From: an uncultured Gammaproteobacteria bacterium
GTDB taxonomy: Bacteria > Patescibacteriota > Patescibacteriia > CAYYDP01
Direction: 5' to 3'
Assembly (NCBI GenBank): GCA_964470645.1
Contig: CAYYDP010000002.1
Coordinates: 1 to 60,506 of the forward strand
Length of the DNA stretch: 60,506 nt
In this document: positions 6,607 to 55,369 of the stretch, one piece after another
Layout: each line of letters starts with the position of its first letter
How positions within the stretch are numbered: the stretch's first letter is position 1
Translations under genes and position numbers: made by a program
The notes under the pieces: model-generated
Database searches by the model: none
What the model saw: only the letters and a program-made list of their open reading frames with translations
What the model was told of the DNA's origin: nothing

Positions 6607-7350
6607 ATGTTGCTAGAGTCTTACCTTCAAAAAATTGGACTAACCGAAAAAGAGTCACGGGTATACCTTGCCGGGTTGCAAACTGGTCCCGCTACAATGC
6701 AATTCCTCGTTGACGCATCGAAGTTGAAACGCGCCACTGTTTATGACGTAGTTTCGTCTTTGCGCGATCAAGGACTCATGAAAACTTTCATGAAAGGAAG
6801 GCGAAGGATGTACGTTGCCGAAGATCCACAAAATCTATTCTCAATATTGAAACAAAAAGAAACCGTACTCCAACAAATCTTCGGACAATTGCTGGCATTG
6901 CAAAACACGGCAGGCAACAAGCCGTCAGTAAGGATTTACCAAGGCATTGAAGGGATTAAAGAAATCTATGAGGACATCTTAAGTAAACGCGCGAATTACA
7001 TTGAGTTATTATCAACAAAACTTCCAGACCAACGTCTCGTTGATTATTGGAGCGGAGAATATATTGAGCGGAGGGTGAAGAAAGGAAATTTCGTGAGAAT
7101 TATCGCTCCCGATGTTCCAATGTATCGAGAACTACAGTCAAAAGACAAATTCGCCTTGCGCGAAACTCGGCTGTTACCGACAAAAAATTTCCCCTCACAA
7201 AATGAAATATTTGCTTATCGAGGAAAGGTGGCGTTCATCACACAGGAAGGAGATGACTCGCTGGGGTTGGTGATTGAAAGCAAAGATATTTCGCAAACAA
7301 TGGAACTCATGCTGGAATATATCTGGAATTCGGTTCCGAATAGTCAATAA
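6607..7350 (+). CDS. TrmB-like wHTH transcriptional regulator, paralog T1
   Basis: The N-terminal wHTH is LTEKESRVYLAGLQTGPATMQFLVDASKLKRATVYDVVSSLRDQGLM, followed by a roughly 170-aa C-terminal domain. It is divergent from the SIS/aminotransferase operon. Confidence 0.8.
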   Translation: MLLESYLQKIGLTEKESRVYLAGLQTGPATMQFLVDASKLKRATVYDVVSSLRDQGLMKTFMKGRRRMYVAEDPQNLFSILKQKETVLQQIFGQLLALQNTAGNKPSVRIYQGIEGIKEIYEDILSKRANYIELLSTKLPDQRLVDYWSGEYIERRVKKGNFVRIIAPDVPMYRELQSKDKFALRETRLLPTKNFPSQNEIFAYRGKVAFITQEGDDSLGLVIESKDISQTMELMLEYIWNSVPNSQ

Positions 7351-7355
7351 CTAAT

Positions 7356-7503
7356 GTCATTGCGAGTGCATCCGAAGCAATCTTCCGCCGTCTCCTCCTT
7401 TTAAGATAAGAGGGGGTTGGGAGGAGTTATGAAGTTTGACGCGACAACCGCAAATGCAAACATTTGAAGATTGCTTCACTCACTCTGATTCGTTCGCAAT
7501 GAC
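7356..7503. repeat. MITE-like imperfect palindrome between convergent T1 and ksgA
   Basis: Terminal inverted repeats are gtcattgcga (7356-7365) and tcgcaatgac (7494-7503). An inner 12-bp pair is gaagcaatcttc (7374-7385) and gaagattgcttc (7466-7477). It encloses one copy of the GC-rich hairpin element (7388-7427). Confidence 0.7.
7388..7427 (-). repeat. GC-rich hairpin element, intergenic copy
   Basis: Sequence ccgtctcctcctt ttaagat aagaggggg ttgggaggagt has the same architecture and orientation as the intragenic copies at 8101, 12841 and 31634. Confidence 0.6.
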
Positions 7504-7506
7504 AAG

Positions 7507-8400
7507 CTATTTTGATTTTATGGCATCAGCCAATTTCACCCACTCTTCAAATTTCAAATTCTCCGAACGCAGATCGGGATCGATTCCTGACTGTTTTAAT
7601 AATGCTTCTGCCTGGCTTGGTTCGCTTCGCAAAAACGCAGCCAAGGTGTTGCGAAGTTTTTTGCGTCTGTTCGCGAAACACGCCTTTACAATTCTGATAA
7701 AATCTTCTTCTTGAATACCACGCTCCCGAAGCAACTTTGCTTTTGAATACATTTCACCCAGCGTAATCTTCACCAACGCGCTGTCAACTTTTGGCTGCGG
7801 TCTAAACGCGGTTTTTGGAACATACGCGAGCAACTCAACGCGAGCGCGCAACTGAGCAATGATCGTAAGAATTCCCTCACTCCCGTCTTTCCCAATCAAA
7901 CGTTCGGCAACTTCTTTTTGAATCATGAGAATTGCTTCCGTTGGTTGGGTTTCAATCGGTGAAAACAGGATATCTTGAACAATGGGCTTGGTAATGTAAT
8001 ACGGAATATTACCAAAAATCTTATAGGGTTTTGAAATATGTTTTTTGAGTTCCGTGGACTCCCGCAAATAATCCCCTTGGATAATCTTCAGACGCGCTTC
8101 TCCCCTACTCTGTCTCCCCCTTGGCAAGGGGGAGATGAAAGAGGGGGTCTTGACTTGATTCAAGAATTTGACCATTCTCTGGTCCTTTTCAACACTCCAC
8201 ACTTCTCTCACCTTCTCCACCAACGGCAGTGTAATCACCCCAAGTCCAGGACCAATTTCCAGTACAACGTCATCTTTTGAGAACTGGTCGAGAATAAAAT
8301 CAACCGTCAAATCATCAATCAAAAAATTCTGCCCCAGAGATTTCGTGGCAATGATTCCTTCTCGCGTCGCGAGTTTCAAAAGTTCAAGTGGATGGATCAT
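7507..8400 (-). CDS. rsmA: 16S rRNA (adenine1518/1519-N6)-dimethyltransferase
   Basis: Motifs GQNFLIDD and VLEIGPGLGVITLPL are present. It contains an in-frame insertion (TPSFISPLPRGRQSRGE) encoded by the hairpin element at 8101-8148. Confidence 0.9.
   Translation of the reverse strand: MIHPLELLKLATREGIIATKSLGQNFLIDDLTVDFILDQFSKDDVVLEIGPGLGVITLPLVEKVREVWSVEKDQRMVKFLNQVKTPSFISPLPRGRQSRGEARLKIIQGDYLRESTELKKHISKPYKIFGNIPYYITKPIVQDILFSPIETQPTEAILMIQKEVAERLIGKDGSEGILTIIAQLRARVELLAYVPKTAFRPQPKVDSALVKITLGEMYSKAKLLRERGIQEEDFIRIVKACFANRRKKLRNTLAAFLRSEPSQAEALLKQSGIDPDLRSENLKFEEWVKLADAIKSK
8101..8148 (-). repeat. GC-rich hairpin element inserted in frame in ksgA
   Basis: Sequence is tcccctactctg + tctccccctt ggc aagggggaga (10-bp stem) + tgaaagagggggt. 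Confidence 0.8.
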
Positions 8401-8403
8401 ACG

Positions 8404-9159
8404 TCACTTGTATTGCTTACTAATACTCCACAACGTGTCAAAAAAAGACTTTTGCGTTTCGAAAAAATCTCTGCTCTCAATAATCAACGCGTAACCTTCG
8501 CCTTTTGTGGAAATCACCCCCACTTTGTAATCATACAACTGCATGAAAATTTTGAGTACTGTTGTTCTCGGGGCTATCCGAACTTCTCTAAGTTCAGAAT
8601 TATTTTTCGAAGGATGCAGAAATTCAAGCACATCATTATCGTCTTTCACAATTCCATAAGCAAAGATACCCCGTTTCACGCGCTCCTCAACAAATGTTTT
8701 GTTGAAATCGTTCACTCTCAAAATTGTATAATATTCCTTCATATCTCCCACGTAATATACTTCTTTTGAGGTACAGGAAACAGGGTCCCAAGCCGCTTCT
8801 TGAATCCCCTTCGTCCCGTGAAAATATTGAATCTTGGGTTTCGCGGGGAAAGCTGAGAACAGTGAGTTGAGTTGAGGCAAAATTTCCTTTGCCAATTCTT
8901 CCTTTTCTTTTACCAGATCACGAATTCGTTTTGGTGGATTGGCAACAAAGTAATGATGGTTGCTTTCATAAATTTCTGTAATCAACGATTTGCGCAATAA
9001 AAAACTTAGGTTGTCATAAACAGTCGTCCGCTTTACTCCAGCCTTTTTTGCAATTTCAATCACCGTTCCCTTTCCAAGCTCCAAACAGGCAAGATAAATT
9101 CTTGCTCGGTTTTCTTCAATTCCCAATTCTTGCAGCTGCTGTTCTAATAATTGATGCAT
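8404..9159 (-). CDS. TrmB-like regulator, paralog T2
   Basis: The wHTH is IEENRARIYLACLELGKGTVIEIAKKAGVKRTTVYDNLSFL. Its stop lies 3 nt from the ksgA ATG. Confidence 0.8.
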   Translation of the reverse strand: MHQLLEQQLQELGIEENRARIYLACLELGKGTVIEIAKKAGVKRTTVYDNLSFLLRKSLITEIYESNHHYFVANPPKRIRDLVKEKEELAKEILPQLNSLFSAFPAKPKIQYFHGTKGIQEAAWDPVSCTSKEVYYVGDMKEYYTILRVNDFNKTFVEERVKRGIFAYGIVKDDNDVLEFLHPSKNNSELREVRIAPRTTVLKIFMQLYDYKVGVISTKGEGYALIIESRDFFETQKSFFDTLWSISKQYK

Positions 9160-9267
9160 ACTGTTTAATGTCGTTGTCAGATGACATCATCAATAGCATA
9201 AAAGTACCATAAATAAACTATAAAATCAATTCTCTTTATGAAGGGGCTAAAATCGAGTCGAATACAG

Positions 9268-10487: not shown

Positions 10488-10567
10488 AAAAAATTCTGCC
10501 CCAGAGCCTTCTTGGTAATAATCCCTTCGTGAGTTGCACGTTTCAATAATTCAATTGGATGGATCAT
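10488..10567 (-). repeat. Duplicated ksgA 5' terminus (gene fragment)
   Basis: These 80 nt align with 8321-8400 (the intact ksgA start) at roughly 80 percent identity by eye, including the ATG (10565-10567). The fragment begins right after the P1 stop and ends 1 nt before the T3 stop. Confidence 0.85.
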
Positions 10568-10568
10568 A

Positions 10569-11315
10569 CTATTTCCCAACTGCCTCCCACATGATATGAA
10601 ACATTGTGCGGAATAAATTCGCGATTGTGTGACTTTTGATTCTCATTACCACTTTTTCTTTTGGATTTGAATATACGATCACGGTATCATCATATGTTTT
10701 CCAGTACGACTCGACGGTATGTTGTTTGGGATAAAAACGCATTTCACGTAAATACTTTGTATCGCTATTTTTATGAAGACGAGTAAAGTCAGACTCATTG
10801 GCGAGCATATACAAAAATATTTTGTTTCTCACGCGTTCCTTCATATACACATCCAAATCATATTCCCTCCCAATAATTTCCTGGAGTACATCAATATTCC
10901 CAAAATCAAACATGGTCTTGTTTTTTGCAAATAAACTTTGCTCCGTCAACTCACGAAATTGCTCAAGTGTATAATGCACCTCCACTTGAGCATTGTTTTT
11001 TTTCGTTCCATATTTCAAATCATCAAGAAGATCTTGAAGACTTAATTCCATGTGGCGATACTGACGGCGTTTTTTCGCGACAATATTCATGAGGGCTTCA
11101 GGCGCTGACAAGCGATACTTGTTAGCTCTACTTTTCAAGTCGTCTACAATAACTCCCTTGGCTTTCAATTCAGTTAAAAAACGAAACAAGGTGCTTTTTG
11201 GCAACCCGGTTTCTCGCATGAGCTCCATTGAGTTCGCTGATTGTCGTTGAATGAGTATCTCAATGATACGCTCCTCCTCTGATCGCAATCCAATGTCTTG
11301 AAGGGATAGTTTCAT
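10569..11315 (-). CDS. TrmB-like regulator, paralog T3
   Basis: The wHTH is ANSMELMRETGLPKSTLFRFLTELKAKGVIV. Length and C-terminal domain match the other paralogs. Confidence 0.7.
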   Translation of the reverse strand: MKLSLQDIGLRSEEERIIEILIQRQSANSMELMRETGLPKSTLFRFLTELKAKGVIVDDLKSRANKYRLSAPEALMNIVAKKRRQYRHMELSLQDLLDDLKYGTKKNNAQVEVHYTLEQFRELTEQSLFAKNKTMFDFGNIDVLQEIIGREYDLDVYMKERVRNKIFLYMLANESDFTRLHKNSDTKYLREMRFYPKQHTVESYWKTYDDTVIVYSNPKEKVVMRIKSHTIANLFRTMFHIMWEAVGK

Positions 11316-11435: not shown

Positions 11436-12329
11436 ATGGTTAATCCAAAAAACATCCGCGTTATTGTTACTGGCTGTGGGTATAAACCACTACAGCGAGA
11501 ATTTTGTGACCATCTTTCCGGACTGCCAACCCATTCAGAAATCATTTTAAATGGAATTCGGTGTAAATTAAATATCGGAGCGGCAATTGCGTGCACACTA
11601 TCCCAAAACGGATATATAGTTCACATGATATCAAAAACAGAAAAATCGCTCCTGAATCTCAAACAAGAATTTTGCAGTCGCTTTCACTGTTTACCAGACA
11701 CCATCGAGTACAGCGCATTCGATCTGCTGGATTCTGATCAAGTTAATAACTTCGTGGTTGATCTTCCAAAAGATAAACCAATCTATTGGGTGCAATCCAT
11801 TGGTTTGAGTGCGGGGAGTTATCAAGTGAAGGACGATAACCCATACCTCCCCATTGAGGACATTGATGCCGAGCTCATTGAGGCTGAATCTCGAACTCTG
11901 CTTCGAGGAACTCACCTTCTTGCGAAGAAGCTTGTTCCCTTATTTCGAAAACAAAAGGAGACGAGAGTTGTTATCATCACATCTCTTAGCGCAATACGCA
12001 GTTACGATATTGGTGCGACCCACTGTGCGTCAAAAGCGGCTTTGGATACGTATACTGAAGTTCTCCGTCTTGCGTTAAGTAAGGAGCATATCTTTGTCAC
12101 AACAATCCGACCTGGTATTGTAGATACTGGCATGTATGACCACCCAGCTGTGATCGCAGCGGTGAAACACGTTGGTGCAGAGTATGGCTGGAGCTATACA
12201 GATAACCAAATTCCACTTATCACTCCGCTTGCGATCGGAAAGCTTGTAAGAGAAGTTCTTTCATCAGAAGCCCACATCACCTCCATCAACCTGGTTGCCC
12301 GCGGCCAATGGCCGCACGAAGGGTCGTAG
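11436..12329 (+). CDS. Divergent short-chain dehydrogenase/reductase-like protein
   Basis: A Rossmann start VIVTGCGYKP and the segment SLSAIRSYDIGATHCASKAALDTY are present. The usual YxxxK tyrosine position reads H. Confidence 0.5.
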   Translation: MVNPKNIRVIVTGCGYKPLQREFCDHLSGLPTHSEIILNGIRCKLNIGAAIACTLSQNGYIVHMISKTEKSLLNLKQEFCSRFHCLPDTIEYSAFDLLDSDQVNNFVVDLPKDKPIYWVQSIGLSAGSYQVKDDNPYLPIEDIDAELIEAESRTLLRGTHLLAKKLVPLFRKQKETRVVIITSLSAIRSYDIGATHCASKAALDTYTEVLRLALSKEHIFVTTIRPGIVDTGMYDHPAVIAAVKHVGAEYGWSYTDNQIPLITPLAIGKLVREVLSSEAHITSINLVARGQWPHEGS

Positions 12330-12363: not shown

Positions 12364-13191
12364 CTAATCGCATTTACTTCGATATATCGTAATATCGAAG
12401 TATGCTAGCTCTATCTTCTTCAACCCAAGATACCACTTCCGTTTCTTTTCTGGAAATTTTTCGATTGCATATCGGAGCATGGTTCGGGGCATACGGTGGG
12501 CATGTTTATTTAGAAATGATTCTAGACTTCTCACATCCTTCTTCCCCACTTCCCGGAGCATCCACCCAACGGCTTTGTGAATGAGATCATGTTCGTCGTT
12601 CAATAATACATTCGCGATGTTGATCGTATCGTCAAATTGTCCTTTTTGGATTAACGCGTTAGTTGAAACCATAGCAATCCTTCGCTCCCACAGATTTTCC
12701 GATCTTGCAAGACGGAACAGAACTTTCCGATCTTTCTGTTTAAGTAAATAATCACCAAGAATACATGGCGCTGACGTATCCACCAAATCCCAATTATTAA
12801 CGTACTTTGTATGCTTCAAATAGAACGTTACTAGTTCCGCTCTCCCTCTGTCCTCCCCTTTCGAAGGGGAGGTGAAGGAGGGGTATCGAATGTTCGATTT
12901 TCCATTTTTCATTTTCCTTTTTCCATAATCCTCATATTTCATCGCCAACATTTCAAGCGCCACAAACCGTTCTTCGTGAATCTTGCTTTTGAGTAGCGTT
13001 TGAATCTCTTCAAGGGTTATTTCTTTGTAATATCTCTTCGCCACCTTCCGTTGTTCTGGTACCTTGATTCCCAAAAATCTATCCCCTTCTCCGTACTCCC
13101 CTTTTCCCGTCTTAAAAAACCACGCCGAAGCGTGAGCGCGTTTTGAATTAATAAGTTTCCGAAGTTCCCGTTTAAGCATCGCGAGGTACAT
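12364..13191 (-). CDS. DNA alkylation repair protein (AlkD-like HEAT-repeat family)
   Basis: The N-terminus KRAHASAWFFKTGKGEYGEGDRFLGIKVPEQRKVAKRY and NNWDLVDTSAP are typical of the DNA_alkylation family. It carries an in-frame hairpin element. Confidence 0.7.
   Translation of the reverse strand: MYLAMLKRELRKLINSKRAHASAWFFKTGKGEYGEGDRFLGIKVPEQRKVAKRYYKEITLEEIQTLLKSKIHEERFVALEMLAMKYEDYGKRKMKNGKSNIRYPSFTSPSKGEDRGRAELVTFYLKHTKYVNNWDLVDTSAPCILGDYLLKQKDRKVLFRLARSENLWERRIAMVSTNALIQKGQFDDTINIANVLLNDEHDLIHKAVGWMLREVGKKDVRSLESFLNKHAHRMPRTMLRYAIEKFPEKKRKWYLGLKKIELAYFDITIYRSKCD
12841..12884 (-). repeat. GC-rich hairpin element inserted in frame in the AlkD-like gene
   Basis: Sequence is tctccctctgt + cctcccctt tcg aaggggagg (9-bp stem) + tgaaggaggggt. 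It encodes YPSFTSPSKGEDRGRAE. Confidence 0.8.
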
Positions 13192-13210: not shown

Positions 13211-13942
13211 TTAAAATCGATCCCATGCGATCTGCAATAATGTTCTCATTGACTCCGCAATCTCTTTATCTTCAACGATGACGGCAATTTTATTACTAAA
13301 CGACATAAGGGCTACCTTGTTGGCGTATACGATGATTTCATTGGGGATCCGATACTTTTGATGCGGAAAAAATTTCATTTTCCGGGATGCCCGCTCGTCA
13401 AAGTTATGCTCCTCCACGCTCTCCGGGGTGTCGGGGCTTAATGATCTCACGGTAATATTATTTTTCTTTCGATTCCGATACGTTCGATGCAAAAAATCCC
13501 TTCCGGTTGCTTCATATAAATCCTTCACGGAAGAAACTGATACTACCTGACAATTTTTCGTTGATGTAAAATCTTCATACACATGCCGAAGTCCCGACAG
13601 CCCTTCGTAGAAGGAAACTTTGGGTTTAACGCCAGTATGTTTTCCGAGAAAAAGAAGATGTTTCAATTGTTTACGAAATTCTTCAACATTCATCACTACA
13701 TACTGAAATAAGCGGTCAGGGCTTAAGACCGAAAACGATTTTATTCCCTCTCTCTCTACGAACGAGCCGTATCCCTTTTTTACTAACCTTTTACACGTAT
13801 CGTATGTGGTAATCCGATTCAAACGGGCGGCGGTAGCGATTTCAGAAACCCTTGTCTCCCCAATGTGGAGCACAGCGAGGTATACCCTCGATTCCTTATC
13901 ACTAAAACCTAAACGGACGAAAATTTCTTCCAAATTGTTCAT
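13211..13942 (-). CDS. TrmB-like regulator, paralog T4
   Basis: The wHTH is FSDKESRVYLAVLHIGETRVSEIATAARLNRITTYDTCKRLVKKG. Confidence 0.8.
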   Translation of the reverse strand: MNNLEEIFVRLGFSDKESRVYLAVLHIGETRVSEIATAARLNRITTYDTCKRLVKKGYGSFVEREGIKSFSVLSPDRLFQYVVMNVEEFRKQLKHLLFLGKHTGVKPKVSFYEGLSGLRHVYEDFTSTKNCQVVSVSSVKDLYEATGRDFLHRTYRNRKKNNITVRSLSPDTPESVEEHNFDERASRKMKFFPHQKYRIPNEIIVYANKVALMSFSNKIAVIVEDKEIAESMRTLLQIAWDRF

Positions 13943-13952
13943 GATGTTTTGT

Positions 13953-14043
13953 TGTAATTATTTTCTACAATTATGATACAGAATGTCGTCTTTTATTTCA
14001 AATAAGAGATTAAATTTATATTAGTCTGTAATAATTTTCTACA
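13953..14043. promoter_or_regulatory. Divergent T4/methyltransferase control region with two 17-nt direct repeats
   Basis: Repeats are tgtaattattttctaca (13953-13969) and tgtaataattttctaca (14027-14043), with 16 of 17 identical. They are candidate operator sites. Confidence 0.4.
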
Positions 14044-14049: not shown

Positions 14050-14805
14050 ATGATTTATCTGACGAATATGACAAAAGAACACTTCGTTCACAAAACGGTG
14101 TACCGACGGTACTCGATTGATACTTCGGCCCTGCGTCTGGAAATAACACCGGATATTTTCCCCCCTTCCACAAATGGACTATTTCTTGCAAAACAGTTCA
14201 GTGTTCGAAAGGGGGAAACAGTTATTGACATCGGCACTGGCTCCGGTATTCTCGCAATTACGGCCGCAAAACGAGGTGGCATTGTGTATGCAACCGACCA
14301 GGATCCTAAAGCAATCCGAGTTGCGCAAAGAAACGCTCATCAAAATAACGTACTGATAAAATTTAAGGTTGGGAAGTACTTCGCAAATTTTAGAAGAAAG
14401 TTTGATGTGATTATTGCTAACCTCCCCCAGGAGATCATTCCATACGAATACCGAATAAACCTCGGAGATACTCTCGCAAAGACTATCGATGGCGGCACGC
14501 GGGGGAACCGACAAATGGTACAATTACTCAAGGTAGCGAAACAATGGATGCGACGAAAATCACGAATGTACTTTCTGGTTAATTCATCAACCGACTATAT
14601 TTCCACACTGAGTATCATGGTGAAAAATTATGATGCGCGCCTTATTGCATTCAGCACACAGCCTATGAAGGGGTTCGTGGATGCTCACATACATAAATTC
14701 GAAAGGCTCCATAAACATGGACTCATTCATATACTTAAAAAGAGAAATAGATGGTACTGTTGTATGTATCTGTTCGAGCTCATGTTAAAAAAGTCTGATT
14801 TATAA
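14050..14805 (+). CDS. Class I SAM-dependent methyltransferase
   Basis: It has SAM motif [21 protein letters not shown], then [10 protein letters not shown] and DVIIANLPQ. Confidence 0.75.
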
Positions 14806-14821
14806 AATTAGAACCCCCCAA

Positions 14822-14902
14822 CCTAAAAAACCACGCCGAAGCGTGAGCGCGTTTTGGATCGGCAAGATGGCGAAGTTCTTTTTTTAAAACGTTTAGCATC
14901 AT
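14822..14902 (-). repeat. Duplicated 5' terminus of the AlkD-like gene (gene fragment)
   Basis: It aligns with 13111-13191, sharing a 29-nt identical core taaaaaaccacgccgaagcgtgagcgcgttttg. It translates as MMLNVLKKELRHLADPKRAHASAWFF. It lies about 17 nt after the methyltransferase stop and 6 nt from the AbiEii stop. Confidence 0.85.
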
Positions 14903-14908
14903 ATCCCT

Positions 14909-15757
14909 TCACTCAGGAAGTCGAGTAATTTCTCTTTTGAGGATGTCTTTCATGTTAGCGCTTACGTCCTTCGTATACCGCTCGTCCTTGATGAACGCTT
15001 CAAGATCAATTCTGATACTTCCGGGGTCAGCTTTCTCGACCGCGTCCAACAGTTTCTGCTTCAATTCTTTCATGTTCTTGATCTCGGATAGGCACGCGAG
15101 ATTAGGCACGACCCCTTTGCTCAAATACCAAAGAAGATCAAAATAGTCACGCCCCTTGACCGTTGCGATCACGTTGCCAGCTTTGTCCGTTCTCTTCCAC
15201 CGGCGTTCGAGAACTGCTCGTATTTTTGTCGCCATGAGCGTTGGTAAATCAAATGTTCTCACCAAAAGCGACTTGTTCATTTTAAATAAGGGAATAATTT
15301 CAATCGGACAGTTCCGTAGGCTTCCATTATCTCGAAACACTTCAAGCTTGATCAGGAGAAGATCGGACTCGCTCGCGGTAGCTAACCCAAGTTCCCGAAG
15401 AAGCGGGAACTTCAGATATACTCGAAATTTCTGAATGAGACTGGTCGCCCTTATATCTGTTTTTTTGTTGATAAACTCTAACACATCTTCGGAAAACTGA
15501 CTCAGGGAAATTGAACCCTCAAGATCGATAAAATCAAGATCTTCCGACAGTCTAGGCAAACCATGGCAGTGCGCCAAGCATGAACCGCCGTAAAAAATCA
15601 ACTTGCCGTATCTTGGCTGTGAGTAAATGAAATCAAGCAGAACAATCTGCAGGTATTCTTTCAGGAGATTGCGCCGAAACACGATTTGATCGCTCTGCGT
15701 TTCTGCAACAATTCGACTGAGCGCTGGCTTAATCTCATTCATAACGTTTTGTATCAA
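14909..15757 (-). CDS. Nucleotidyltransferase AbiEii/AbiGii-family toxin (type IV TA / abortive infection)
   Basis: It carries the motif FYGGSCLAHCHGLPRLSEDLDFID, characteristic of the DUF1814/AbiEii family. Confidence 0.7.
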   Translation of the reverse strand: MIQNVMNEIKPALSRIVAETQSDQIVFRRNLLKEYLQIVLLDFIYSQPRYGKLIFYGGSCLAHCHGLPRLSEDLDFIDLEGSISLSQFSEDVLEFINKKTDIRATSLIQKFRVYLKFPLLRELGLATASESDLLLIKLEVFRDNGSLRNCPIEIIPLFKMNKSLLVRTFDLPTLMATKIRAVLERRWKRTDKAGNVIATVKGRDYFDLLWYLSKGVVPNLACLSEIKNMKELKQKLLDAVEKADPGSIRIDLEAFIKDERYTKDVSANMKDILKREITRLPE

Positions 15758-16397
15758 ATAGTGTTTTAAGAATTGTTTTCATTCGGTCAGTTCCTTCGCG
15801 CGCTGCGTGTGCTAAACACTCACGCCGAACCGCAGGAGATAGCTCTTCCACGTTAAGGCGCAACTCTTCAATCGCCTCAGGATTGTTGAGGTGTCGTTTA
15901 CGGAAGTACAGATAGTCAAACAACGCTTTGGCAGGAGAAGCCTTAAAAATTTGGAGATCGCCGTCCCGTTTTATTTCGAATCCTGTAAACAGTGTCGCGG
16001 TAATGCTCTGATACCGGAAACGACCAAACTGATTGTTTAACGTTGCGGTTTTATTGGTGGAAACCGCCGTAATCATAACGGGAAACTCGGTAATGATCCC
16101 GTGCTGATAAAGGACGTATTCGCCGCTCACATATGATGGGGAATAAAGTGCGCTTGCTAAAAATTCCACATACGACGCGATCCTTCCCGATTTTTCCAGC
16201 AAATGAACGTAGTCCTTCGTAACATAGGTTCCTTTTTTGAGCCTAACCACGCTGCCAGACCTCTGGTGACGAGAAAGGAGGATTTTGAGATACGTTTTAT
16301 TTGTTTCAACACTTGCCAAATCATCAAGCGTAAACAACGGTAGTGTTGCTACCATTCGTAAAATACGCTGAATTTTCGAATTTTCCTCATTTCTCAT
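15735..16397 (-). CDS. AbiEi-like antitoxin/transcriptional regulator
   Basis: It sits upstream of AbiEii, overlapping it by 23 nt, and has an N-terminal wHTH-like segment. The gene order is typical of abiEi-abiEii pairs. Confidence 0.55.
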   Translation of the reverse strand: MRNEENSKIQRILRMVATLPLFTLDDLASVETNKTYLKILLSRHQRSGSVVRLKKGTYVTKDYVHLLEKSGRIASYVEFLASALYSPSYVSGEYVLYQHGIITEFPVMITAVSTNKTATLNNQFGRFRYQSITATLFTGFEIKRDGDLQIFKASPAKALFDYLYFRKRHLNNPEAIEELRLNVEELSPAVRRECLAHAAREGTDRMKTILKTLFDTKRYE

Positions 16398-16522
16398 AGT
16401 ATACTTTAATGGTATATTATCAGAAATGACTTGTCAATTAAAATCTCCACAATTTTATTATGCGTTTATTCCGTTTATGCTGATGAGTGAACTTCCATGG
16501 TTCCATTCGCATATTTTATCTT

Positions 16523-16548
16523 TCAAATCCTCCTCGCATCAATCGCTC
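16523..16548 (-). repeat. Short duplicated 3' terminus of the 168-aa gene at 18581-19087
   Basis: It matches 18581-18606 at 22 of 26 positions, including the stop codon (AIDARRI* versus AIDSRRV*). It lies 14 nt from the T5 stop. It is short, so confidence is lower. Confidence 0.5.
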
Positions 16549-16562
16549 GCCCTATCCATCAC

Positions 16563-43051: not shown

Positions 43052-43114
43052 AGATTTAACGTATATTATCAAATTACAAACACCTATTCGTTCCCCCTAT
43101 CATTTTACTCGCTC

Positions 43115-44981: not shown

Positions 44982-44986
44982 TTACT

Positions 44987-47153: not shown

Positions 47154-48242
47154 TCAGACCACCATATCCGACCATTCAATCGTTCGCTCATTCTCTCGCT
47201 TCCCATGTCCAATCTTCACCCAAATGATCTTTGCCTCGTCGGAGTATTTCTTTAGGATATTTGTTACCTTCTCTGCCCATTCGATGGCGAACACTGCGCC
47301 GGAGTCAATAAGTTTGGCAAATCCAAGGTCCAAAAATTCTTGATCCGAAAACATGCGCCAGGTGTCGATGTGAATGAGTTTATATTTTTTGCTCCCATGC
47401 TTGAACACATAGTCTCGTTCGAGAATAAACGTGGGAGAATTCACCCGTTCTTTCACCCCGAGCGCCCGCGCAACTCCCTTCGTAAACTGTGTCTTCCCTG
47501 CACCCAAATTCCCTTGAAGCGCAAAAATGACCGACTTGAATCCAAGATAGTGTTTGTATTGATTCATGAGTTTCTCTCCCAGCGCAATGGTTTCCTCCTG
47601 TGATTTCGTGTTTTGGTGATTTCGTGTTTTTGTAAACTTGATTTCTCCCTGCCTCAAGATCGTCGCGTCGTTGAGTGTGGTATCTACCACAGTCGAAGGT
47701 TCGCGAATGGGCAGTTGCCCCGCATCCAAAACCAAATCAATAAGTTTCTTTTGTTTCGCCGAGATGTTATTGAAAATATCCTTAATGTGGTACGGGCGTT
47801 TTTTATACGACGCATTAGCAGACGTGGAAGTAATAGGTTTCCCAAATGTTTTCACGATTTTCAGAATTAACGGATAATCCGGAATCCTGATCCCGAGCGT
47901 TCCCAGTTCTGATTCTACTCCTTTCGCAACATTCCCCTTGCTCTTTGAAACAACTGTTACGGGTCCTGGGAGCAATGTCCGATAGATATTCTCTGCTGTT
48001 TTGTTGATGCGAACAAATTTTGCCGCCATATTTTTATCCGCGCAGGCAATCGAAAGCGGCTTCCCTTCCCGACGAGCTTTATACTTCAAAAGTTTATTCA
48101 CTGCTTCCTGATTTGTCGCATCAACCCCGATTCCATACAGTGTCTCTGTTGGATACACAACAAGTCCCCCCTCCTTGAGGACTTCAATGGTTTTCTTAAC
48201 CACTTCCGATTCTTTCGTTTTTTTGAGATTCAGGGTGAGCAT
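47154..48242 (-). CDS. Fusion of L-threonylcarbamoyladenylate synthase (TsaC/Sua5 YrdC domain) and TsaE ATPase
   Basis: The N-terminal YrdC motifs are VVYPTETLYGIGVDA and KGKPLSI. The C-terminal TsaE P-loop is LQGNLGAGKTQFTKGVARALGV, followed by SPTF. Confidence 0.85.
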   Translation of the reverse strand: MLTLNLKKTKESEVVKKTIEVLKEGGLVVYPTETLYGIGVDATNQEAVNKLLKYKARREGKPLSIACADKNMAAKFVRINKTAENIYRTLLPGPVTVVSKSKGNVAKGVESELGTLGIRIPDYPLILKIVKTFGKPITSTSANASYKKRPYHIKDIFNNISAKQKKLIDLVLDAGQLPIREPSTVVDTTLNDATILRQGEIKFTKTRNHQNTKSQEETIALGEKLMNQYKHYLGFKSVIFALQGNLGAGKTQFTKGVARALGVKERVNSPTFILERDYVFKHGSKKYKLIHIDTWRMFSDQEFLDLGFAKLIDSGAVFAIEWAEKVTNILKKYSDEAKIIWVKIGHGKRENERTIEWSDMVV

Positions 48243-48245
48243 ACT

Positions 48246-48989
48246 TTAAGTAACAGTTACGGGTTCAGACTTCTCCCACATCATGTCAAAATAATTCTGA
48301 AACACCTTTACAAAATCCGAATCACGAATTTCAATAATCCTAGGCGGGTCGGTCACGGCTTGCAAAATAACAGTATCATGAACCACATTGAAATCACCCA
48401 AAAACTCACCTTCACGTTTCCAAACTCGATACTCGGTGAGGTCAGGATATTTTTTCAGCATATCAAGCTCGCTTTGGGTGATGGAAAAATGAATGGTTTT
48501 CCAAAAAATTCTTTTTCGTAATCTAAGCTCTAAATATTTTTTATAGTTTTTCCCCATCAGCGCGATCCACTGTTCGTTGGGAAGCACTCCCACCGCGTAG
48601 TCAACAGTGCCTTCGGGAATGCGCTCAAGCGACTGAATCCAGTAGTCACGGTAGCTTTCGATTCCCTCATACACGATCATCTGTTGGTGTACTTTATGCT
48701 GATAGGTTTTCACCTCTTCCATAATCCCAGAAACAATACTCTCTTTTCTTTTTACCTGAGTCATTAAGCTTGCCGGATCGGTAATTTGAAACTGCCAAAC
48801 TCCGCTTCGAATCAATTTTGTTGCGTATCCTTGGTTAACAAGATGATCAAGAGATTGGTAAACGAGATTTCGGTGTAAGTCGATTTTATTGATAATATGA
48901 CCGGCCCTGCAAGGCCCGAATCGAACAAGCGCCTCATAAACCAAGGCGTCGTTTTTTGTCATTCCTAATGTTTGAAGCTCTTTTAACAT
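48246..48989 (-). CDS. TrmB-like regulator, paralog T10
   Basis: The wHTH is MTKNDALVYEALVRFGPCRAGHIINKIDLHRNLVYQSLDHLVNQGY. Its stop lies 3 nt from the tsaC ATG. Confidence 0.8.
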   Translation of the reverse strand: MLKELQTLGMTKNDALVYEALVRFGPCRAGHIINKIDLHRNLVYQSLDHLVNQGYATKLIRSGVWQFQITDPASLMTQVKRKESIVSGIMEEVKTYQHKVHQQMIVYEGIESYRDYWIQSLERIPEGTVDYAVGVLPNEQWIALMGKNYKKYLELRLRKRIFWKTIHFSITQSELDMLKKYPDLTEYRVWKREGEFLGDFNVVHDTVILQAVTDPPRIIEIRDSDFVKVFQNYFDMMWEKSEPVTVT

Positions 48990-50299: not shown

Positions 50300-50319
50300 T
50301 TGTTAGTTTTTTAGAACGG

Positions 50320-50453
50320 AACATTTGTGAAGGTTTCGGAATAGACCTCACTCAACAACGCCCCGTTCTACGATTCGCGCGAATTGAAGAACGATTCTAT
50401 TAAAGGAGTGGGGCTTCAGCTTCTTTCATTTTCTTGAGATTCAAGATGAGCAT
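50320..50453 (-). repeat. Duplicated tsaC 5' terminus, copy r1 (decayed)
   Basis: The minus strand reads atgctcatcttgaatctcaagaaaatgaaagaa (MLILNLKKMKE), compared with the intact MLTLNLKKTKE. Weaker, frame-broken similarity extends to about 50320. Its ATG lies 1 nt from the T11 stop. Confidence 0.75.
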
Positions 50454-50454
50454 A

Positions 50455-51204
50455 TCAATCCTCGATTGAATTCCATATTAGTTGGAACAACTCTCGTCCC
50501 ATTTGTACGACACTGGGGTTTTCAATGGCAATGGCGGAGATTGGGTTAAATTGATGAATGACGAGTAGATTGGGCGTGACAATCAGGTTTGTGGCGAGCG
50601 ACGTGTTTGGCGGAAGAATTTTAATGTGTTCGTGATAATTTTTTTCAAAACCCTTCCGTCGTCGCGCTTCTTCAGTGTCTTGCAGAAGCAACCGAGTGTC
50701 AATATTGAGTTTAGAACGGCAATTAAGATACTGTTCAAAGTATTCCCGATCCTCTTTTCTCCACTCTTCCGTATCCGATATCGCCCAGTAGTACTCTTTT
50801 GGTTTCAATTCTTCTAAGATTCGGTCATAAACCGTTTTCACCAATTCCAAACCTTCGTAGTGTTTGATAGTGCTCGATTCTCCCTTGAGGTGGAAGAGCG
50901 CGGAAAACTCCGGCAGTATGTGCTGGAATTTTTGTTTGCGGATATCAAGGAGATTTCCGACGTGTTCCGGGTTTTCGGCTATGAATCTGCGCTTTACTCC
51001 TTTGATTTCAACTCGAATAAATCCTTGCCTCATCAAGGATTCAATGATTGAATACACTGTTGTTCGTTTGATCCCAGTTTCTTTTGAAAGCGAGAGAACC
51101 GATGAGGAACCGAGCGATAAACAAGCGACATACACTCGTGCCTCGTGGTCGCTCATCCCGATGTCAATAAGCGATGAAACAAGCTTTTCGTGATGATTGA
51201 TCAT
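50455..51204 (-). CDS. TrmB-like regulator, paralog T11
   Basis: The wHTH is MSDHEARVYVACLSLGSSSVLSLSKETGIKRTTVYSIIESLMRQGF. Confidence 0.8.
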   Translation of the reverse strand: MINHHEKLVSSLIDIGMSDHEARVYVACLSLGSSSVLSLSKETGIKRTTVYSIIESLMRQGFIRVEIKGVKRRFIAENPEHVGNLLDIRKQKFQHILPEFSALFHLKGESSTIKHYEGLELVKTVYDRILEELKPKEYYWAISDTEEWRKEDREYFEQYLNCRSKLNIDTRLLLQDTEEARRRKGFEKNYHEHIKILPPNTSLATNLIVTPNLLVIHQFNPISAIAIENPSVVQMGRELFQLIWNSIED

Positions 51205-51234
51205 AAAATGTCTGAAAAAGGTCCGACATTATCT

Positions 51235-51263
51235 ATACTAAAATAAGGTAAGAATATTGTCAA
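51235..51263 (-). promoter_or_regulatory. Sigma70-like promoter for T11
   Basis: On the minus strand: TTGACA (51258-51263), a 17-nt spacer, then TAGTAT (51235-51240). Confidence 0.5.
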
Positions 51264-51350
51264 ATTAAGTCGAATGTCGACAGATATGACAGATTTTCGT
51301 TTCTAAGGTACGTTTATTAGTCGAAAGGTAAATTCTGGAGACGAACTATT

Positions 51351-52499: not shown

Positions 52500-53687
52500 C
52501 TAGATCATGCTCGCGGGTATAAAACCCAATTGTTTTGAAAACGACTTTGAGATAACGTAGGTATGTTTGAGTTTCAACGATTTTGCCACAGATTGAGCCT
52601 TCGCGTAATCTTGCGGGACCGCGGTCTGCTTCACCTCAAGAGCAACCGATTCTTTCGGAAGCACAAAATCAATTTCAATCCCAGTCCTCCGTTGATAATA
52701 ATGGATAGGCTCATAGGATGGTTTCAGGTTTTGAAAAACAGCATTTTCCAAAAGCTGGCCGTCTCCGACGTTTGCGAAATGATTCACGATCCCAACATCG
52801 CAGGCATACAGCTTCTTTGTCCCACTCACCTCTCGATCACGGTTCCGGCTAAAGGGAGTAATGAGATGGATAAAATACGTTCCTTCAAGAAACGACAGAT
52901 ACGAGTATACCGTTTCCCGGGAAACCCCTACTTCAACCGATAATTTGCTGATCTCTAGCTTTGAACCAACCCGCTGCAAAAGCAATAGCAACAAATCCCT
53001 CAGAGCGGTAAGATTTTTCACATCCGCCAACGTCTTCACGTCTTTTTCAAAATAGGATTTAAAAATATCGTTCAATCGGATCTTTTTTTGCTCCCAGGTT
53101 TTGGCAAGTACCACAGACGGAAACCCACCAAACTGGAGATACTCATCGTATAACTTTTTTGATCGCTCGAATTGGACTTCGGTTTTTTGTACGTGCTTTT
53201 CCGGGAACGAACCGCCCCACGGCATGGGAACGCGCTTAAACTCAAGAAACTCCTGAAACGTTAATGGATAGAGTTCAAAAACCGCTTTTCGTCCTGCGAG
53301 ACTCTCAGGAAATACATTCTTAAAATAATAACTGGACGAACCAGTAAGAAAAAACTTAACATCATGATGATCTTGCAAATACTTGATCGCCTTTACAATA
53401 TTTGGCATTGCCTGAATTTCATCAAGAAAAACATACGCCTTTTTCTTTGGGCTGATTCCGTACGACGCGAGGTTTGCCAAGATATTATTGTAATCGGTTT
53501 CCTCAAAAATCTTTTGCTCAACCGGGTTCTCAATGTCCAAAAATACTTTGTTATCACTCTTAATCTCGTCAAAGATTTGGCGATAGAGGGTTGTTTTCCC
53601 AACCTGTCGCATACCAGTGAGAACAATAATTTCTTTGGTCGATAACTGCTTTCTCAGCTTTGGTAATAATGATCGTTGAAATATCAT
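52500..53687 (-). CDS. AAA-family ATPase with DUF4143-like C-terminal domain
   Basis: It has the Walker A motif IIVLTGMRQVGKTTLY and is a paralog of 23264-24490. Confidence 0.7.
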   Translation of the reverse strand: MIFQRSLLPKLRKQLSTKEIIVLTGMRQVGKTTLYRQIFDEIKSDNKVFLDIENPVEQKIFEETDYNNILANLASYGISPKKKAYVFLDEIQAMPNIVKAIKYLQDHHDVKFFLTGSSSYYFKNVFPESLAGRKAVFELYPLTFQEFLEFKRVPMPWGGSFPEKHVQKTEVQFERSKKLYDEYLQFGGFPSVVLAKTWEQKKIRLNDIFKSYFEKDVKTLADVKNLTALRDLLLLLLQRVGSKLEISKLSVEVGVSRETVYSYLSFLEGTYFIHLITPFSRNRDREVSGTKKLYACDVGIVNHFANVGDGQLLENAVFQNLKPSYEPIHYYQRRTGIEIDFVLPKESVALEVKQTAVPQDYAKAQSVAKSLKLKHTYVISKSFSKQLGFIPASMI

Positions 53688-53772: not shown

Positions 53773-53820
53773 TCCGATGGTTTTCTTAATCACCTCCGAT
53801 TCTTTCGTTTTTTGAGATTG
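53773..53820 (-). repeat. Duplicated tsaC 5' terminus, copy r2 (truncated before the ATG)
   Basis: gttttcttaatcacctccgattctttcgttttttgagatt is nearly identical to 57385-57427. Confidence 0.85.
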
Positions 53821-53867: not shown

Positions 53868-53958
53868 GAAAATTCACAGCCGAATACTTCCCTTATGGTA
53901 GGTGTCCCGACTTGTCGGGAATAGGCTGTTCCCCCTATCGACGGGGGTTTTTGTTTTT
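53868..53958 (+). ncRNA. Candidate small RNA (~90 nt)
   Basis: It runs from the predicted TSS to an intrinsic terminator, ccccctatcgacggggg + tttttgttttt (53931-53958). An internal hairpin is tcccgac ttg tcggga. The only ORF on this strand (53912-54136) starts inside the candidate RNA, has no recognisable motif and is antisense to the DUF3800 pseudogene. It is convergent with that pseudogene. Confidence 0.4.
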
Positions 53959-54519
53959 ACAAATGTTTAATTATACCTTTGCTTTCTGCCCGGCGATAAC
54001 AATCTGCTACTTTTTCATTTCCCTCAAGATAGTCGCGAACAAAGCCAGCTATTGCGTCAGCCAATCGAATGAAAGGGTCATTTTCATCTTTCCTAACACC
54101 ACGAACCTTTCTCACACGGACGTTAAGTCTTTTTAAACCCGCTGAAAAGCGATGTCGTTCCGATCGTTTGAGTCCATCAACAAACACAGTTGTTTCATAC
54201 AACCCTTGAGATTTACGCAAAATCGCTTTCGCGGTTGAAAATATCGTGAGATCAAAATACGCCTTACTCTCGGAATAATACGAATAAAAAATTGTTTCAC
54301 GAAGATGCTTATTTTCCAGTACTGCCCGATGTATGCCAACCTCCGTTTTTCATTCGTATGAAACCACTTCCGATTCCCTTTGCAACTTCGCCTCTCAACA
54401 CCCCCAAGATGTTGTTGAATCAACTCGCGGTCGCGATCCAACACCACCACTGATACGAGAAACAGTTTTCCCTCGGTATCTTGTCCAGATTCATCAACAT
54501 AGCAGTATAGTTTTTGCAT
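53957..54519 (-). pseudogene. DUF3800-family gene split by a frameshift
   Basis: The N-terminal ORF (54133-54519) starts MQKLYCYVDESGQD. The C-terminal ORF (53957-54220) contains PFIRLADAIAGFV. The second frame is open back to a homopolymer, T5 on the plus strand at 54346-54350. One extra base there would fuse the two into one protein of about 187 aa. Confidence 0.65.
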
Positions 54520-54550
54520 ACGATCAGTGTATCAAACTCAATGTGAGTAA

Positions 54551-54618
54551 TTCAATGCTTCCACGGTCTTCTTGATGACTTCCCCTTCTTTCGTTTTTCT
54601 GAGATTCAGGATGAGCAT
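54551..54618 (-). repeat. Duplicated tsaC 5' terminus, copy r3
   Basis: ttcaatgcttccacggtcttcttgatgacttccccttctttcgtttttctgagattcaggatgagcat includes the ATG (54616-54618). It lies 4 nt from the T12 stop. Confidence 0.8.
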
Positions 54619-54622
54619 AGTT

Positions 54623-55369
54623 TTATGTTAACGGGTCACTCTGATCCCATAAAAACTGCCAAAGTTGTTTTTGCAGTTTCACAATCTTCAAATCTTCAAT
54701 GGCTGTACTTGCGAGCGGTTCAAACGAATCAAAGACAGCCATCCGATCATTCAACAGGAATCCGACTTTATTCGAGATATCAAATCCCGATGGAAGAAAC
54801 CGAATTTCCTGCATCCCCGCGCGGTATTTTTTCTTAACATATTCGAGTGTTTTCTCGGTTCGTGGCATTAGATTGCGAACACACCCGCCGTGACGCTTAA
54901 GAATCTCAAACATATGCTTATTGTGTGCTTCACCAAATATTTTCCAATACTCCTCAATAAACACGAGTCCAGAAACCTCTTTTGATCTCATCATGACATC
55001 ATGAATGTATTCAAACTGCTTTCGACCCTCATACAGGGTTGTCCTGCTTTTGGGCTCATGAATCCGTTTTTGGTTCACCTCGAGTGCAATCTGCTTTGCA
55101 AGTTCCGTCTTCTCAAGATACCCATAAAGCACAGCTTCAAAACCAAGAGGAATATAAAAATCGATCTTACCCTTCTGAATTTGAGAGACAAGACTTTTTT
55201 GCTTCAACGACTCAACGATGACATACACCGTTGGTCGTTTCAGGCCAGTGCGCTGCGCGAGTTCGGTCATGCGAGCTTCTCCAAGTACAACAAGAGCATT
55301 GTATACCTCAGCCTCTTTTCCGGTAAACCCAAGTTCAGTCAAGCGAAATACGATGTTGGTATTATCCAT
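54623..55369 (-). CDS. TrmB-like regulator, paralog T12
   Basis: The wHTH is FTGKEAEVYNALVVLGEARMTELAQRTGLKRPTVYVIVESLKQKSLV. ATG at 55369. Confidence 0.8.
   Translation of the reverse strand: MDNTNIVFRLTELGFTGKEAEVYNALVVLGEARMTELAQRTGLKRPTVYVIVESLKQKSLVSQIQKGKIDFYIPLGFEAVLYGYLEKTELAKQIALEVNQKRIHEPKSRTTLYEGRKQFEYIHDVMMRSKEVSGLVFIEEYWKIFGEAHNKHMFEILKRHGGCVRNLMPRTEKTLEYVKKKYRAGMQEIRFLPSGFDISNKVGFLLNDRMAVFDSFEPLASTAIEDLKIVKLQKQLWQFLWDQSDPLT

Follow-up and report, generated by a model that had tools for sequence, protein, structure and literature searches.

The stretch of DNA analysed here, referred to below as the window, is the whole of the 60.5-kb contig CAYYDP010000002.1. It has a G+C content of 40-47%, and the majority of its genes lie on the minus strand. 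The encoded proteins are closest to those of Patescibacteria, including Wolfebacteria, Paceibacterota, Magasanikbacteria and Doudnabacteria, and its housekeeping backbone includes valS, rsmA, msrA, tsaD, sua5-tsaE, pfkB and rplS. We take the window to be a piece of the chromosome of a member of the Patescibacteria, or candidate phyla radiation (CPR), in which the backbone is broken up by approximately 12 compact accessory cassettes. The cassettes contain twelve genes for TrmB-like regulators (T1-T12), each paired with one cargo gene or a short operon, and six of the cargos are LivK-type solute-binding proteins (P1-P6).

All twelve T proteins (243-254 aa) match the Pfam family TrmB (PF01978) over its gathering score (26.6-53.5 versus 25.6 bits), with T3 as the borderline member at 26.6 bits. 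They are alignable over their full length, with pairwise identities of 14-29%, and share a C-terminal region of approximately 170 aa to which no Pfam family corresponds; no Pfam match was found past residue ~80. A hidden Markov model of the T family itself matches T1 at 6e-68 and T3 at 3.8e-51. An AlphaFold2 model of T11 built on 104 sequences (pLDDT 93) consists of a winged helix-turn-helix (wHTH), a 27-residue helix and an alpha/beta domain, and the remaining T proteins align with T11 end to end. In Foldseek searches the full-length model matched TrmBL2 (5bpd, 3e-13 over 274 columns) and TrmB (3qph, 2e-9), while the C-terminal domain matched the N-subdomain alone of the TrmB sugar-binding domain (2f5t) and also PLD3. 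Judged from this model, T is a genuine member of the TrmB family of a short, TrmBL2-like type, composed of a wHTH, a long helix and a phospholipase D (PLD)-like domain. By analogy to TrmB and TrmBL2, the long helix probably mediates dimerisation. TrmB proper and TrmBL1 have a C-terminal sugar-binding beta-subdomain (~340 aa in total) that is missing from the shorter T proteins, and scores against the corresponding NCBIfam equivalogs are far under the cut-offs (TrmBL1, 39.7 versus 650 bits; TrmB, 28.6 versus 600 bits). A function for T as a PLD-type enzyme was considered and rejected, as the alignment of the C-terminal domains contains no HxK(x)4D (HKD) motif and no conserved histidine or lysine; a catalytic role is unlikely for a PLD-like domain that lacks this motif. 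The nearly invariant positions are Y116, G118, Y126, R163, P198, F240 and W244, and W240 alone is invariant among the 12 paralogues. The T family is large. When 1.84 billion proteins were searched with a profile of the 12 paralogues, 23,700 cluster representatives matched, including 4,684 with E<=1e-30. Among the best-scoring proteins, many are 370-1079 aa long, contain 2-7 matched stretches and increase in length in steps of ~135 aa, which suggests a single wHTH followed by tandem copies of the C-terminal domain. Homologues of T8 number only two, each on a short contig. No paper linking TrmB-type regulators with CPR bacteria was found in the literature searched.

The six P proteins (374-386 aa) match Peripla_BP_6 (PF13458) over its full length, from profile positions 1-2 to 339-342 of 343 in every case, with E values of 9e-44 to 1.6e-62, and are 23-33% identical to each other. 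P6 matches solved LivJ/LivK-type proteins, including 3td9 (1.6e-35) and E. coli LivJ (1z15, 3e-29), although all P proteins score far under the cut-off of the NCBIfam LivJ-type model (142-148 versus 477 bits). The profile searches bear out a preliminary description of the window, made from the sequence alone, which had recognised twelve highly divergent TrmB-like paralogs with a shared ~170-aa C-terminal domain and six LivK-type binding proteins. The same description proposed that each binding protein has an N-terminal transmembrane anchor and no lipobox. The anchor is predicted in all six: each N-terminus has 1-2 basic residues followed by an uncharged hydrophobic stretch of 17-23 residues (mean Kyte-Doolittle 2.6-3.2; residues 9-29 in P1). 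A lipobox ([LVI][ASTVI][GAS]C) is absent from P2-P6, but P1 contains the lipobox-like IAGC. Since Cys14 of this motif is near the start of the 21-residue hydrophobic helix, just five residues in, a membrane anchor is the better reading than a lipoprotein for P1 as well.

The ligand-contact residues of the P proteins, a comparison of which had been proposed, appear to differ. In LivJ the alpha-amino and alpha-carboxylate groups of the ligand are bound by what we take to be Tyr18, Ser79, Thr102, Tyr150, Tyr202 and Glu226, identities that match the LivJ sequence. In an alignment of P1-P6 with LivJ, 3td9 and 4gnr, at ~25% identity, only P3 retains most of the LivJ-like pocket (Tyr18, Thr at Ser/Thr79, Ser at Ser/Thr102, Tyr150 and Asp at Asp/Glu226). 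P1, P2, P4, P5 and P6 lack an acidic residue at 226 and/or Thr102, and differ both from LivJ and mutually. The ligands of the P proteins probably differ, and several may not be amino acids.

Five T genes are located head-to-head with a P gene, as had been described. T2 (8404-9159, -; PF01978 1.2e-12) is divergent from P1 (9326-10486, +; PF13458 9e-44), T5 (16563-17324, -; 2.4e-11) from P2 (17444-18574, +; 1.5e-51), T6 (27158-27907, +; 9.7e-12) from P3 (25901-27049, -; 7.1e-55), T10 (48246-48989, -; 5e-09) from P5 (49148-50299, +; 1.5e-46) and T11 (50455-51204, -; 4.3e-13) from P6 (51351-52475, +; 1.6e-62). T9 (43871-44620, -; 2.2e-14) is connected to P4 via a longer unit that is transcribed divergently from it and comprises orf96 and orf336 (44691-45997, +), which have no match in Pfam, PADLOC or NCBIfam, and P4 (46014-47150, +; 2e-50), the last gene of the cassette, which starts 16 nt past orf336. 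The T6 cassette also contains a class I methyltransferase gene downstream of P3 (25180-25899, -; PF13649 1.3e-13) and genes for DUF6922 and an AbiEii toxin downstream of T6 (28083-28957, +; PF21956 8e-12; PF08843 7e-10). The T11/P6 cassette includes a gene for an AAA_14/DUF4143 ATPase (52500-53687, -), recognised by Pfam and by the PADLOC candidate defence family PDC-S01 (2e-67).

The remaining T genes are paired with enzymes or modification proteins, again largely as described before. T1 (6607-7350, +; PF01978 1.7e-13) is divergent from a SIS/PGI-like gene (5383-6540, -; PF10432 8e-12), which scores under the cut-off of the NCBIfam phosphoglucose/phosphomannose isomerase models, and a class I/II aminotransferase gene (4376-5398, -; PF00155 1.3e-14). 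The cargo of T3 (10569-11315, -; 5.2e-06) is a short-chain dehydrogenase (SDR; 11436-12329, +; PF00106 2.5e-18), and that of T8 (40395-41159, -; 1.8e-11) is a queuosine salvage protein (Q_salvage, the former DUF2419; 41271-42257, +; PF10343 1e-73). Class I methyltransferases, of which the window has four including that in the T6 cassette, accompany T4 (13211-13942, -; 1.2e-09) as a PrmA/MTS-like gene (14050-14805, +; PF06325 1.2e-18), T7 (35236-35988, -; 6.2e-11) as a gene at 36084-36776 (+; PF13649 8.4e-17) and T12 (54623-55369, -; 1.5e-13) as a gene at 55468-56313 (+) that is followed by a Glu/Leu/Phe/Val dehydrogenase gene (56274-57338, +).

Comparison of the window with itself returned 14 same-strand matches at E<1e-3, all of which bracket T modules. 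The T cassettes are insertions bracketed by duplicated gene ends. Each repeat, of 22-132 nt, duplicates the end of the adjacent backbone gene or, once, the stretch just upstream of it, and the sources are seven different gene ends and one non-coding stretch upstream of a CoA-binding gene. In every case the backbone gene is undamaged, and across the cassette from it lies the second copy, a displaced pseudo-end that can often still be read as an open reading frame (ORF). The repeats have sharp boundaries, and stop codons are found 1-11 nt inside the cassette limits. Ten of the 12 T genes are within such repeat-bracketed cassettes; no bracketing repeats were found for the T1 cassette or on the far side of T3/SDR.

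The individual repeats illustrate the variety of the targets. The T2/P1 cassette is located at the 5' end of rsmA (7507-8400, -), with the T2 stop 3 nt before the rsmA start; the real 5' end (8321-8402; 82 nt, 82%, E 2e-15) recurs as a pseudo 5' end between the P1 and T3 stops (10488-10569) in which the frame is kept (MIHPIELLKRATHEGIITKKALGQNF), and the T3 stop abuts this pseudo-rsmA end. The T4 repeat (55-62 nt, 82-85%, E 1.5e-10) duplicates the 5' part of a DNA_alkylation gene (12364-13191, -), with copies at 13106-13167 and, past the methyltransferase stop, at 14817-14878. The short T5/P2 repeat, weaker than the 14 matches above, with 20 of 22 nt identical and a local score of 34 versus a shuffle maximum of 23, is at 16525-16546 and at 18583-18604, the latter being the 3' end of an ORF at 18581-19087 (-). 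The T6/P3 cassette is bracketed by the 3' end of msrA (24484-25065, +), the copy at 25000-25052 being repeated as a pseudo 3' end at 28986-29038 (53 nt, 96%, E 1.3e-17). The T7 repeat (42 nt, 88%, with a 26-nt core at 96%) derives from the non-coding stretch between the T7 stop and the CoA-binding gene (34722-35153, -), at 35190-35231, and recurs past the methyltransferase gene at 36824-36862. The T8 repeat (70 nt, 97%, E 8e-27) duplicates the 5' part of a gene at 39770-40384 (-), with one copy at 40294-40363 and another at 42259-42328 that forms an odd C-terminal tail of the ORF at 42227-43072.

The gene sua5-tsaE (47154-48242, -; Pfam Sua5_yciO_yrdC and TsaE) encodes Sua5/TsaC and TsaE as a single 362-aa fusion, and cassettes are inserted at both of its ends. 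Its real 3' end (47154-47285) recurs as a pseudo 3' end that abuts the T9 stop (43733-43864; 127-132 nt, 77-78%, E 1.7e-22), in which 43 codons are kept open with 14 synonymous and 11 non-synonymous changes. At the 5' end, the T10 stop is 3 nt before the sua5 start, and five copies of a repeat (H) separate four stacked units, namely T10/P5, T11/P6/AAA_14 ATPase, a T-less remnant, and T12/methyltransferase/dehydrogenase. The reference copy is the real 5' end of the gene (48148-48243). Moving outward, the other copies are a pseudo 5' end that abuts the T11 stop (50414-50454; 41 nt, 85%), a partial copy (53777-53819; 44 nt, 93%), a decayed copy with in-frame stop codons that abuts the T12 stop (54551-54619; 66-69 nt, 83%), and the outermost copy beside the pfkB intergenic region, in which the ORF is intact (57346-57441; 96 nt, 91%, E 3.5e-31). 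Just past the P5 stop and before the sua5-derived separator, a remnant at 50313-50343 resembles the last codons of a P6-type gene (..GTFVKVSE*).

In L008, a related locus that comes from an independent data set, the counterparts of T11 and P6 are enclosed by the same sua5-derived separators, but the cassettes are partly different: UDG, a T6-like/P pair and a haem-oxygenase-like gene are present where the window has T12, the methyltransferase and the dehydrogenase. In L008 a unit composed of a P 3' end plus separator occurs on both flanks of the T11/P6 counterparts. An assembly artefact as the source of the repeats was rejected, as the copies are 65-97% identical and L008 is an independent assembly with the same separators. 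Among Sua5-TsaE relatives that are at most 54% identical, including loci on contigs of 94 kb and 1.2 Mb, no T or P was found within 10 kb.

In a typical cassette, T and its cargo are transcribed oppositely from a shared control region of 90-170 nt. For the five head-to-head T/P pairs the divergent layout described before is confirmed, but the control regions are 108-166 nt long with preferred starts; the earlier range of 55-146 nt reflects the starts of the longest ORFs. Several control regions contain operator-like palindromes. That of T2/P1 has a TGTC..GACA site (9169-9186), and that of T4 (13953-14043) has two copies of TGTAGAAAATwATTACA (13953-13969 and 14027-14043). The T7 control region (36017-36082) has two TGTCA-N11-TGACA palindromes (36017-36037 and 36062-36082). 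The T11/P6 control region (51205-51350), which like that of T2 has TGTC..GACA sites, contains TGTCGACA-bearing palindromes at 51209-51228 and 51275-51291 and a promoter-like TTGACA-17-TAGTAT at 51263-51235. In the T12 control region (55399-55426) a perfect palindrome, AAACGTCAATA-N2-TATTGACGTTT, overlaps the -35 element of a promoter-like site, and a further promoter-like site lies upstream of P5 (49100-49129). In these regions promoter-like hexamers flank or overlap the palindromes. In L008, an 82%-identical relative, the T11/P6 control region retains CTGTCATAnnTGTCGACA, the -35 and -10 hexamers and also a TGTCG..GAC site downstream of the -10. The pattern TGTC-N4-15-GACA occurs 11 times in the window and 6 times in the 12 T-upstream regions (2.3% of the DNA; 0.25 expected), an enrichment that is suggestive only, because the pattern was picked after viewing the sequences and overlaps the TTGACA -35 consensus. 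A dimeric T would bind the palindromic sites in its own divergent promoter region, and such binding would control T itself and gate its cargo. These features point to local regulation by T, which we infer to bind its own control region.

The window contains no ABC permease or ATPase gene, as had been noted before. No LSGGQ-type ABC signature is present in any frame, Walker A motifs are found only in the two AAA_14/DUF4143 ATPases and the TsaE part of Sua5-TsaE, none of which is of the ABC type, and phmmer searches of the window with LivH, LivM and LivG seeds gave no match. The HAAT-family linkage to livH/livM and livG/livF is therefore lacking in the window, but it is observed for orthologues in relatives. 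One genome per species was scanned with the P6 orthogroup only as the query, an alignment that included P1-P5 being too diverse, and the loci were annotated with our own T and P profiles plus the LivH, LivM and LivG seeds. The scan returned 16 loci, 4 in CPR bacteria and 12 in DPANN or DPANN-like archaea (Woesearchaeota, Diapherotrites, Nanoarchaeota, Ainarchaeum, Pacearchaeota and two bins labelled Methanosarcinales). In 13 of these 16 loci the P6 orthologue has a divergent T immediately upstream, and across 19 non-redundant related loci a divergent T adjoins 28 of 45 P genes.

In seven loci, several T/P pairs are interleaved with a single set of livH, livM, livG and livF. These include two from Woesearchaeota (L012 and L021), one from a metagenome-assembled genome labelled Saccharibacteria (L011), L022 and L024. 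The order in Woesearchaeota L012 is T/P-livH-livM, T/P6'-livG-P-P, T/P-livF, T/P, where P6' is the P6 orthologue. Wolfebacteria (L005/L006, L015 and L016, the last on the 984-kb complete genome CP011209) have T/P, T/P-livH-livM-livG, T/P, T. In Wolfebacteria L005, a 23S_rRNA_IVP/bAvd-type gene lies between livH and livM (14808-15191) and an HTH/SocA pair between livM and livG (16192-17326), so that the liv operon is itself interrupted by accessory genes. The preliminary description had offered, as one of two readings, a repertoire of individually regulated receptors that feed one shared transporter encoded elsewhere. The arrangement in the relatives supports this reading well and suggests that the P proteins are orphans only locally; for the present genome, of which the window covers one complete contig, a shared transporter is probable.

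Across these loci, what is conserved is the placement of some T gene next to a binding-protein gene, and not which T it is. Whether from CPR or DPANN, the P6 orthologues are 42-56% identical. Among the T proteins encoded beside them at least three groups can be told apart, with only 19-29% identity between groups, namely those of the window and L008, those of Wolfebacteria, and an archaeal set (26-66% identical internally). Conversely, T11 orthologues (42-52% identical) in Doudnabacteria and Wolfebacteria adjoin unrelated genes. Strict co-inheritance of T and P was accordingly rejected, as the T partners within the P6 orthogroup are not orthologous. In a mirror-tree comparison of 33 pairs the T and P distances correlate (Mantel r = 0.41, p = 2e-4), which partly reflects genome relatedness. 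As judged from these alignments, binding-protein genes are common to CPR and DPANN and their regulator partners are exchangeable. The inserted cassettes with duplicated gene ends, the occurrence of the T/P module in DPANN and the lack of a fixed T partner were all missed by the preliminary description.

Taken together, it seems probable that the window contains T-regulated cargo cassettes, among them receptors for a shared LivHMGF importer, that were inserted at gene ends by recombination. The six LivJ/K-type (HAAT) proteins would sit on the cell surface by means of the N-terminal membrane helix and would be interchangeable receptors for one LivHMGF-type ABC importer encoded outside the contig, as suggested by the relatives. 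With differing pockets, a broader set of solutes could be scavenged, and the T of each receptor would determine when that receptor is made. The varied repeat lengths, the unrelated targets and the lack of a recombinase gene point to host recombination rather than a site-specific enzyme; no integrase, transposase or other recombinase family was found among the window ORFs scanned. Insertion would have occurred either by homologous pairing in a conserved gene end with an illegitimate join nearby, after DNA uptake, or through a single crossover with a circle that had looped out between such repeats. T itself is presumably not the agent of insertion. Repeat-bracketed insertions that lack T are seen in Wolfebacteria, where a cobO-like gene has a 309-aa gene inserted at its 5' end, and in Woesearchaeota, where copies of the livH 3' end flank a P gene. 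They indicate that such insertion is general in these lineages and does not need T. A test of codon positions in the repeats gave pooled differences of 24, 11 and 34 at positions 1, 2 and 3, a pattern that falls between that of target duplication followed by decay and that of two functional orthologous ends.

Several results weigh against this account. Recombination alone leaves unaccounted for the stop-codon-tight cassette limits and the co-orientation of T with the target gene, which is seen at 8 of 8 independent sites. The operator motif was chosen with the sequences in view and coincides in part with TTGACA, no livHMGF gene was found on the contig, and TrmBL2, the closest fold, is a non-specific chromatin protein and not a ligand-gated regulator. 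In addition, T is not co-inherited with the binding protein, which weakens the case for a single dedicated T-cargo specificity. Selection could account for the co-orientation at the 5'-end targets, since the T transcript then also covers the displaced housekeeping gene, and at the three 3'-end targets the co-orientation may be due to chance.

Other explanations were considered. T and its cargo could constitute an undescribed, self-regulated portable cassette that is exchanged between CPR and DPANN and that a dedicated mechanism with a fixed polarity inserts where housekeeping genes begin or end. Such a mechanism would explain the tight limits, the stacking at sua5 and the co-orientation, but we regard it as unlikely. 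If true, these cassettes would be a main vehicle by which reduced genomes gain and swap nutrient receptors and modification enzymes across two domains of life. Another explanation, in which a recombinase, be it T or one encoded elsewhere, moves the cassettes as a dedicated type of mobile element, with insertion at gene termini, long target duplications and fixed polarity, is very unlikely indeed. The limits 1-11 nt past stop codons, the polarity at all eight sites, the integron-like stacking at one site and the PLD-fold domain of T (some PLD-fold enzymes cut DNA) are as expected of such an element. Yet T lacks the HKD motif or any other conserved catalytic residue, its nearly invariant residues being Tyr, Gly, Arg, Pro, Phe and Trp, the window has no integrase or transposase, the repeats span 22-132 nt with targets unrelated in sequence, and repeat-bracketed insertions occur without T in Wolfebacteria and Woesearchaeota.

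The roles of T and P in the preferred account, local regulation and uptake, also have to be weighed. Like TrmBL2, the T proteins could act in the nucleoid or as silencers, accompanying acquired DNA and generally damping its expression, instead of being sequence-specific, ligand-responsive local regulators. The chromatin protein TrmBL2 is the best fold match, the sugar-binding subdomain seen in TrmB is missing from T, a given cargo can have different T partners, and every T is located in acquired DNA. However, twelve paralogues at 14-29% identity suggest diversified specificity, individual control regions carry distinct palindromes, and the divergent gene-pair layout is typical of local regulators, so that a general silencing role is unlikely. 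The alternative raised in the preliminary description, that the binding fold serves surface sensing or host attachment in an episymbiotic cell and not transport, gained no positive support and is very unlikely. It would fit the lack of a transporter gene in 60 kb, the five of six pockets without canonical amino-acid-binding residues and the name of one Patescibacteria homologue in its source, 'penicillin-binding protein activator'; solute-binding proteins are also known to feed signalling proteins besides transporters (review, PMC8050422). It is countered by relatives in CPR and DPANN, where livG/livF share an operon with P6 orthologues, and livH/livM with other P genes. Moreover, the P proteins have no cytoplasmic or signalling domain, and no sensor kinase or chemoreceptor adjoins the P genes.

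The individual components of the proposed system, a TrmB-family regulator, a LivK-type binding protein and arrays formed by recombination, are known. The P proteins belong to the same family (PF13458) as E. coli LivJ/LivK, and orphan binding proteins whose transporter is encoded elsewhere are a further parallel; in the relatives, as with LivJ/LivK and LivHMGF, several receptors are served by one permease/ATPase set. Unlike LivJ/LivK, the receptors (six or more) are scattered away from the transporter, each with its own TrmB-type regulator, and are anchored by a membrane helix rather than free in the periplasm, and five of the six lack the amino-acid-binding residues of LivJ. TrmB regulates the operon of a binding-protein-dependent ABC sugar importer. 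The T proteins match TrmB, TrmBL1 and TrmBL2 of Thermococcales in the N-terminal wHTH (PF01978), and TrmBL2 and TrmB in the full-length fold, but are only ~250 aa long, lack the C-terminal sugar-binding subdomain and are found in a bacterial host, where 12 very divergent copies in 60 kb are each paired with one cargo gene.

The arrays have precedents of their own. Effector-immunity arrays of type VI secretion systems (T6SS) and the orphan ends of Rhs and contact-dependent inhibition systems have been explained by sequential displacement (PMC5361080). As in those arrays, modules in the window are added beside a conserved gene segment, older modules are pushed outward and duplicated fragments act as separators; unlike them, the cargo is a regulator plus a gene instead of toxin and immunity genes, and the targets are ends of unrelated housekeeping genes (rsmA, msrA, sua5-tsaE and others) that stay whole. 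The cassettes also resemble those of integrons in being compact and stacked at one site with short repeats in between. Integrons differ in that no integrase, attI or attC is present here, the separators are the target gene's own 5' end, and the T cassettes carry their own predicted promoters and regulator. It is the combination that appears to be undescribed, with expanded TrmBL2-type, per-gene switches packaged as insertable cassettes in CPR bacteria and P genes shared with DPANN.

With their tiny genomes, CPR bacteria and DPANN archaea can produce few building blocks for themselves and are presumed to depend on other cells. Little is understood of how such organisms select nutrients or regulate their genes. 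The window suggests that one regulator family provides most of the local gene control seen, that nutrient receptors join a shared importer singly, each with its own switch, and that regulator-cargo units are the movable part of these genomes, with binding-protein genes shared between bacteria and archaea.

Accessory and defence genes are abundant in the region. Two AAA_14/DUF4143 ATPase genes are present, one at 23264-24490 (+) and the other that of the T11/P6 cassette at 52500-53687 (-), as are two AbiE-type toxin-antitoxin modules, one with AbiEii and an AbiEi-like gene (14909-16397, -) and the other the AbiEii/DUF6922 pair of the T6 cassette (28083-28957, +). A YafQ/RelE-like toxin pair lies at 43170-43731 and a RhuM/Fic gene at 33679-34695. 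An M20 peptidase gene (32068-33570, +) encodes an additional N-terminal winged-helix segment (MarR_2/HVO_A0114-like) and would specify an enzyme fused to a DNA-binding-type domain. Membrane proteins encoded in the window include MFS, DUF4153, Rce1-like, CarS-like, CDP-OH_P_transf and YdjM proteins. The CarS-like protein (37462-38046, -), a member of the CDP-archaeol synthase family (PF01864, 1e-31) on a bacterial contig, adjoins the CDP-alcohol phosphatidyltransferase.

An Rfam search of the window returned three tRNAs and nothing else. One region includes a long-arm tRNA (59189-59274) whose anticodon is unclear in ARAGORN. A 28-nt copy (86%) of the 3' end of this tRNA is located 106 nt downstream (59353-59380), as though a small insertion at the 3' end of the tRNA had left a scar. 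Finally, housekeeping coding sequences contain perfect or near-perfect 7-nt tandem repeats of 3-5 copies each (GCTTGTA, TTTCGGA, CTTGTAA, TTTCGAA and others). They are found in valS (1374-1403 and 2211-2241), the DNA-alkylation gene (12893-12926), tsaD (30916-30953 and 31410-31437) and pfkB (58096-58125 and 58211-58230). The heptamers encode short inserted peptides such as YKLQATS and SEIRNPK, and comparable heptamer runs are present in the Saccharibacteria-labelled locus L011.

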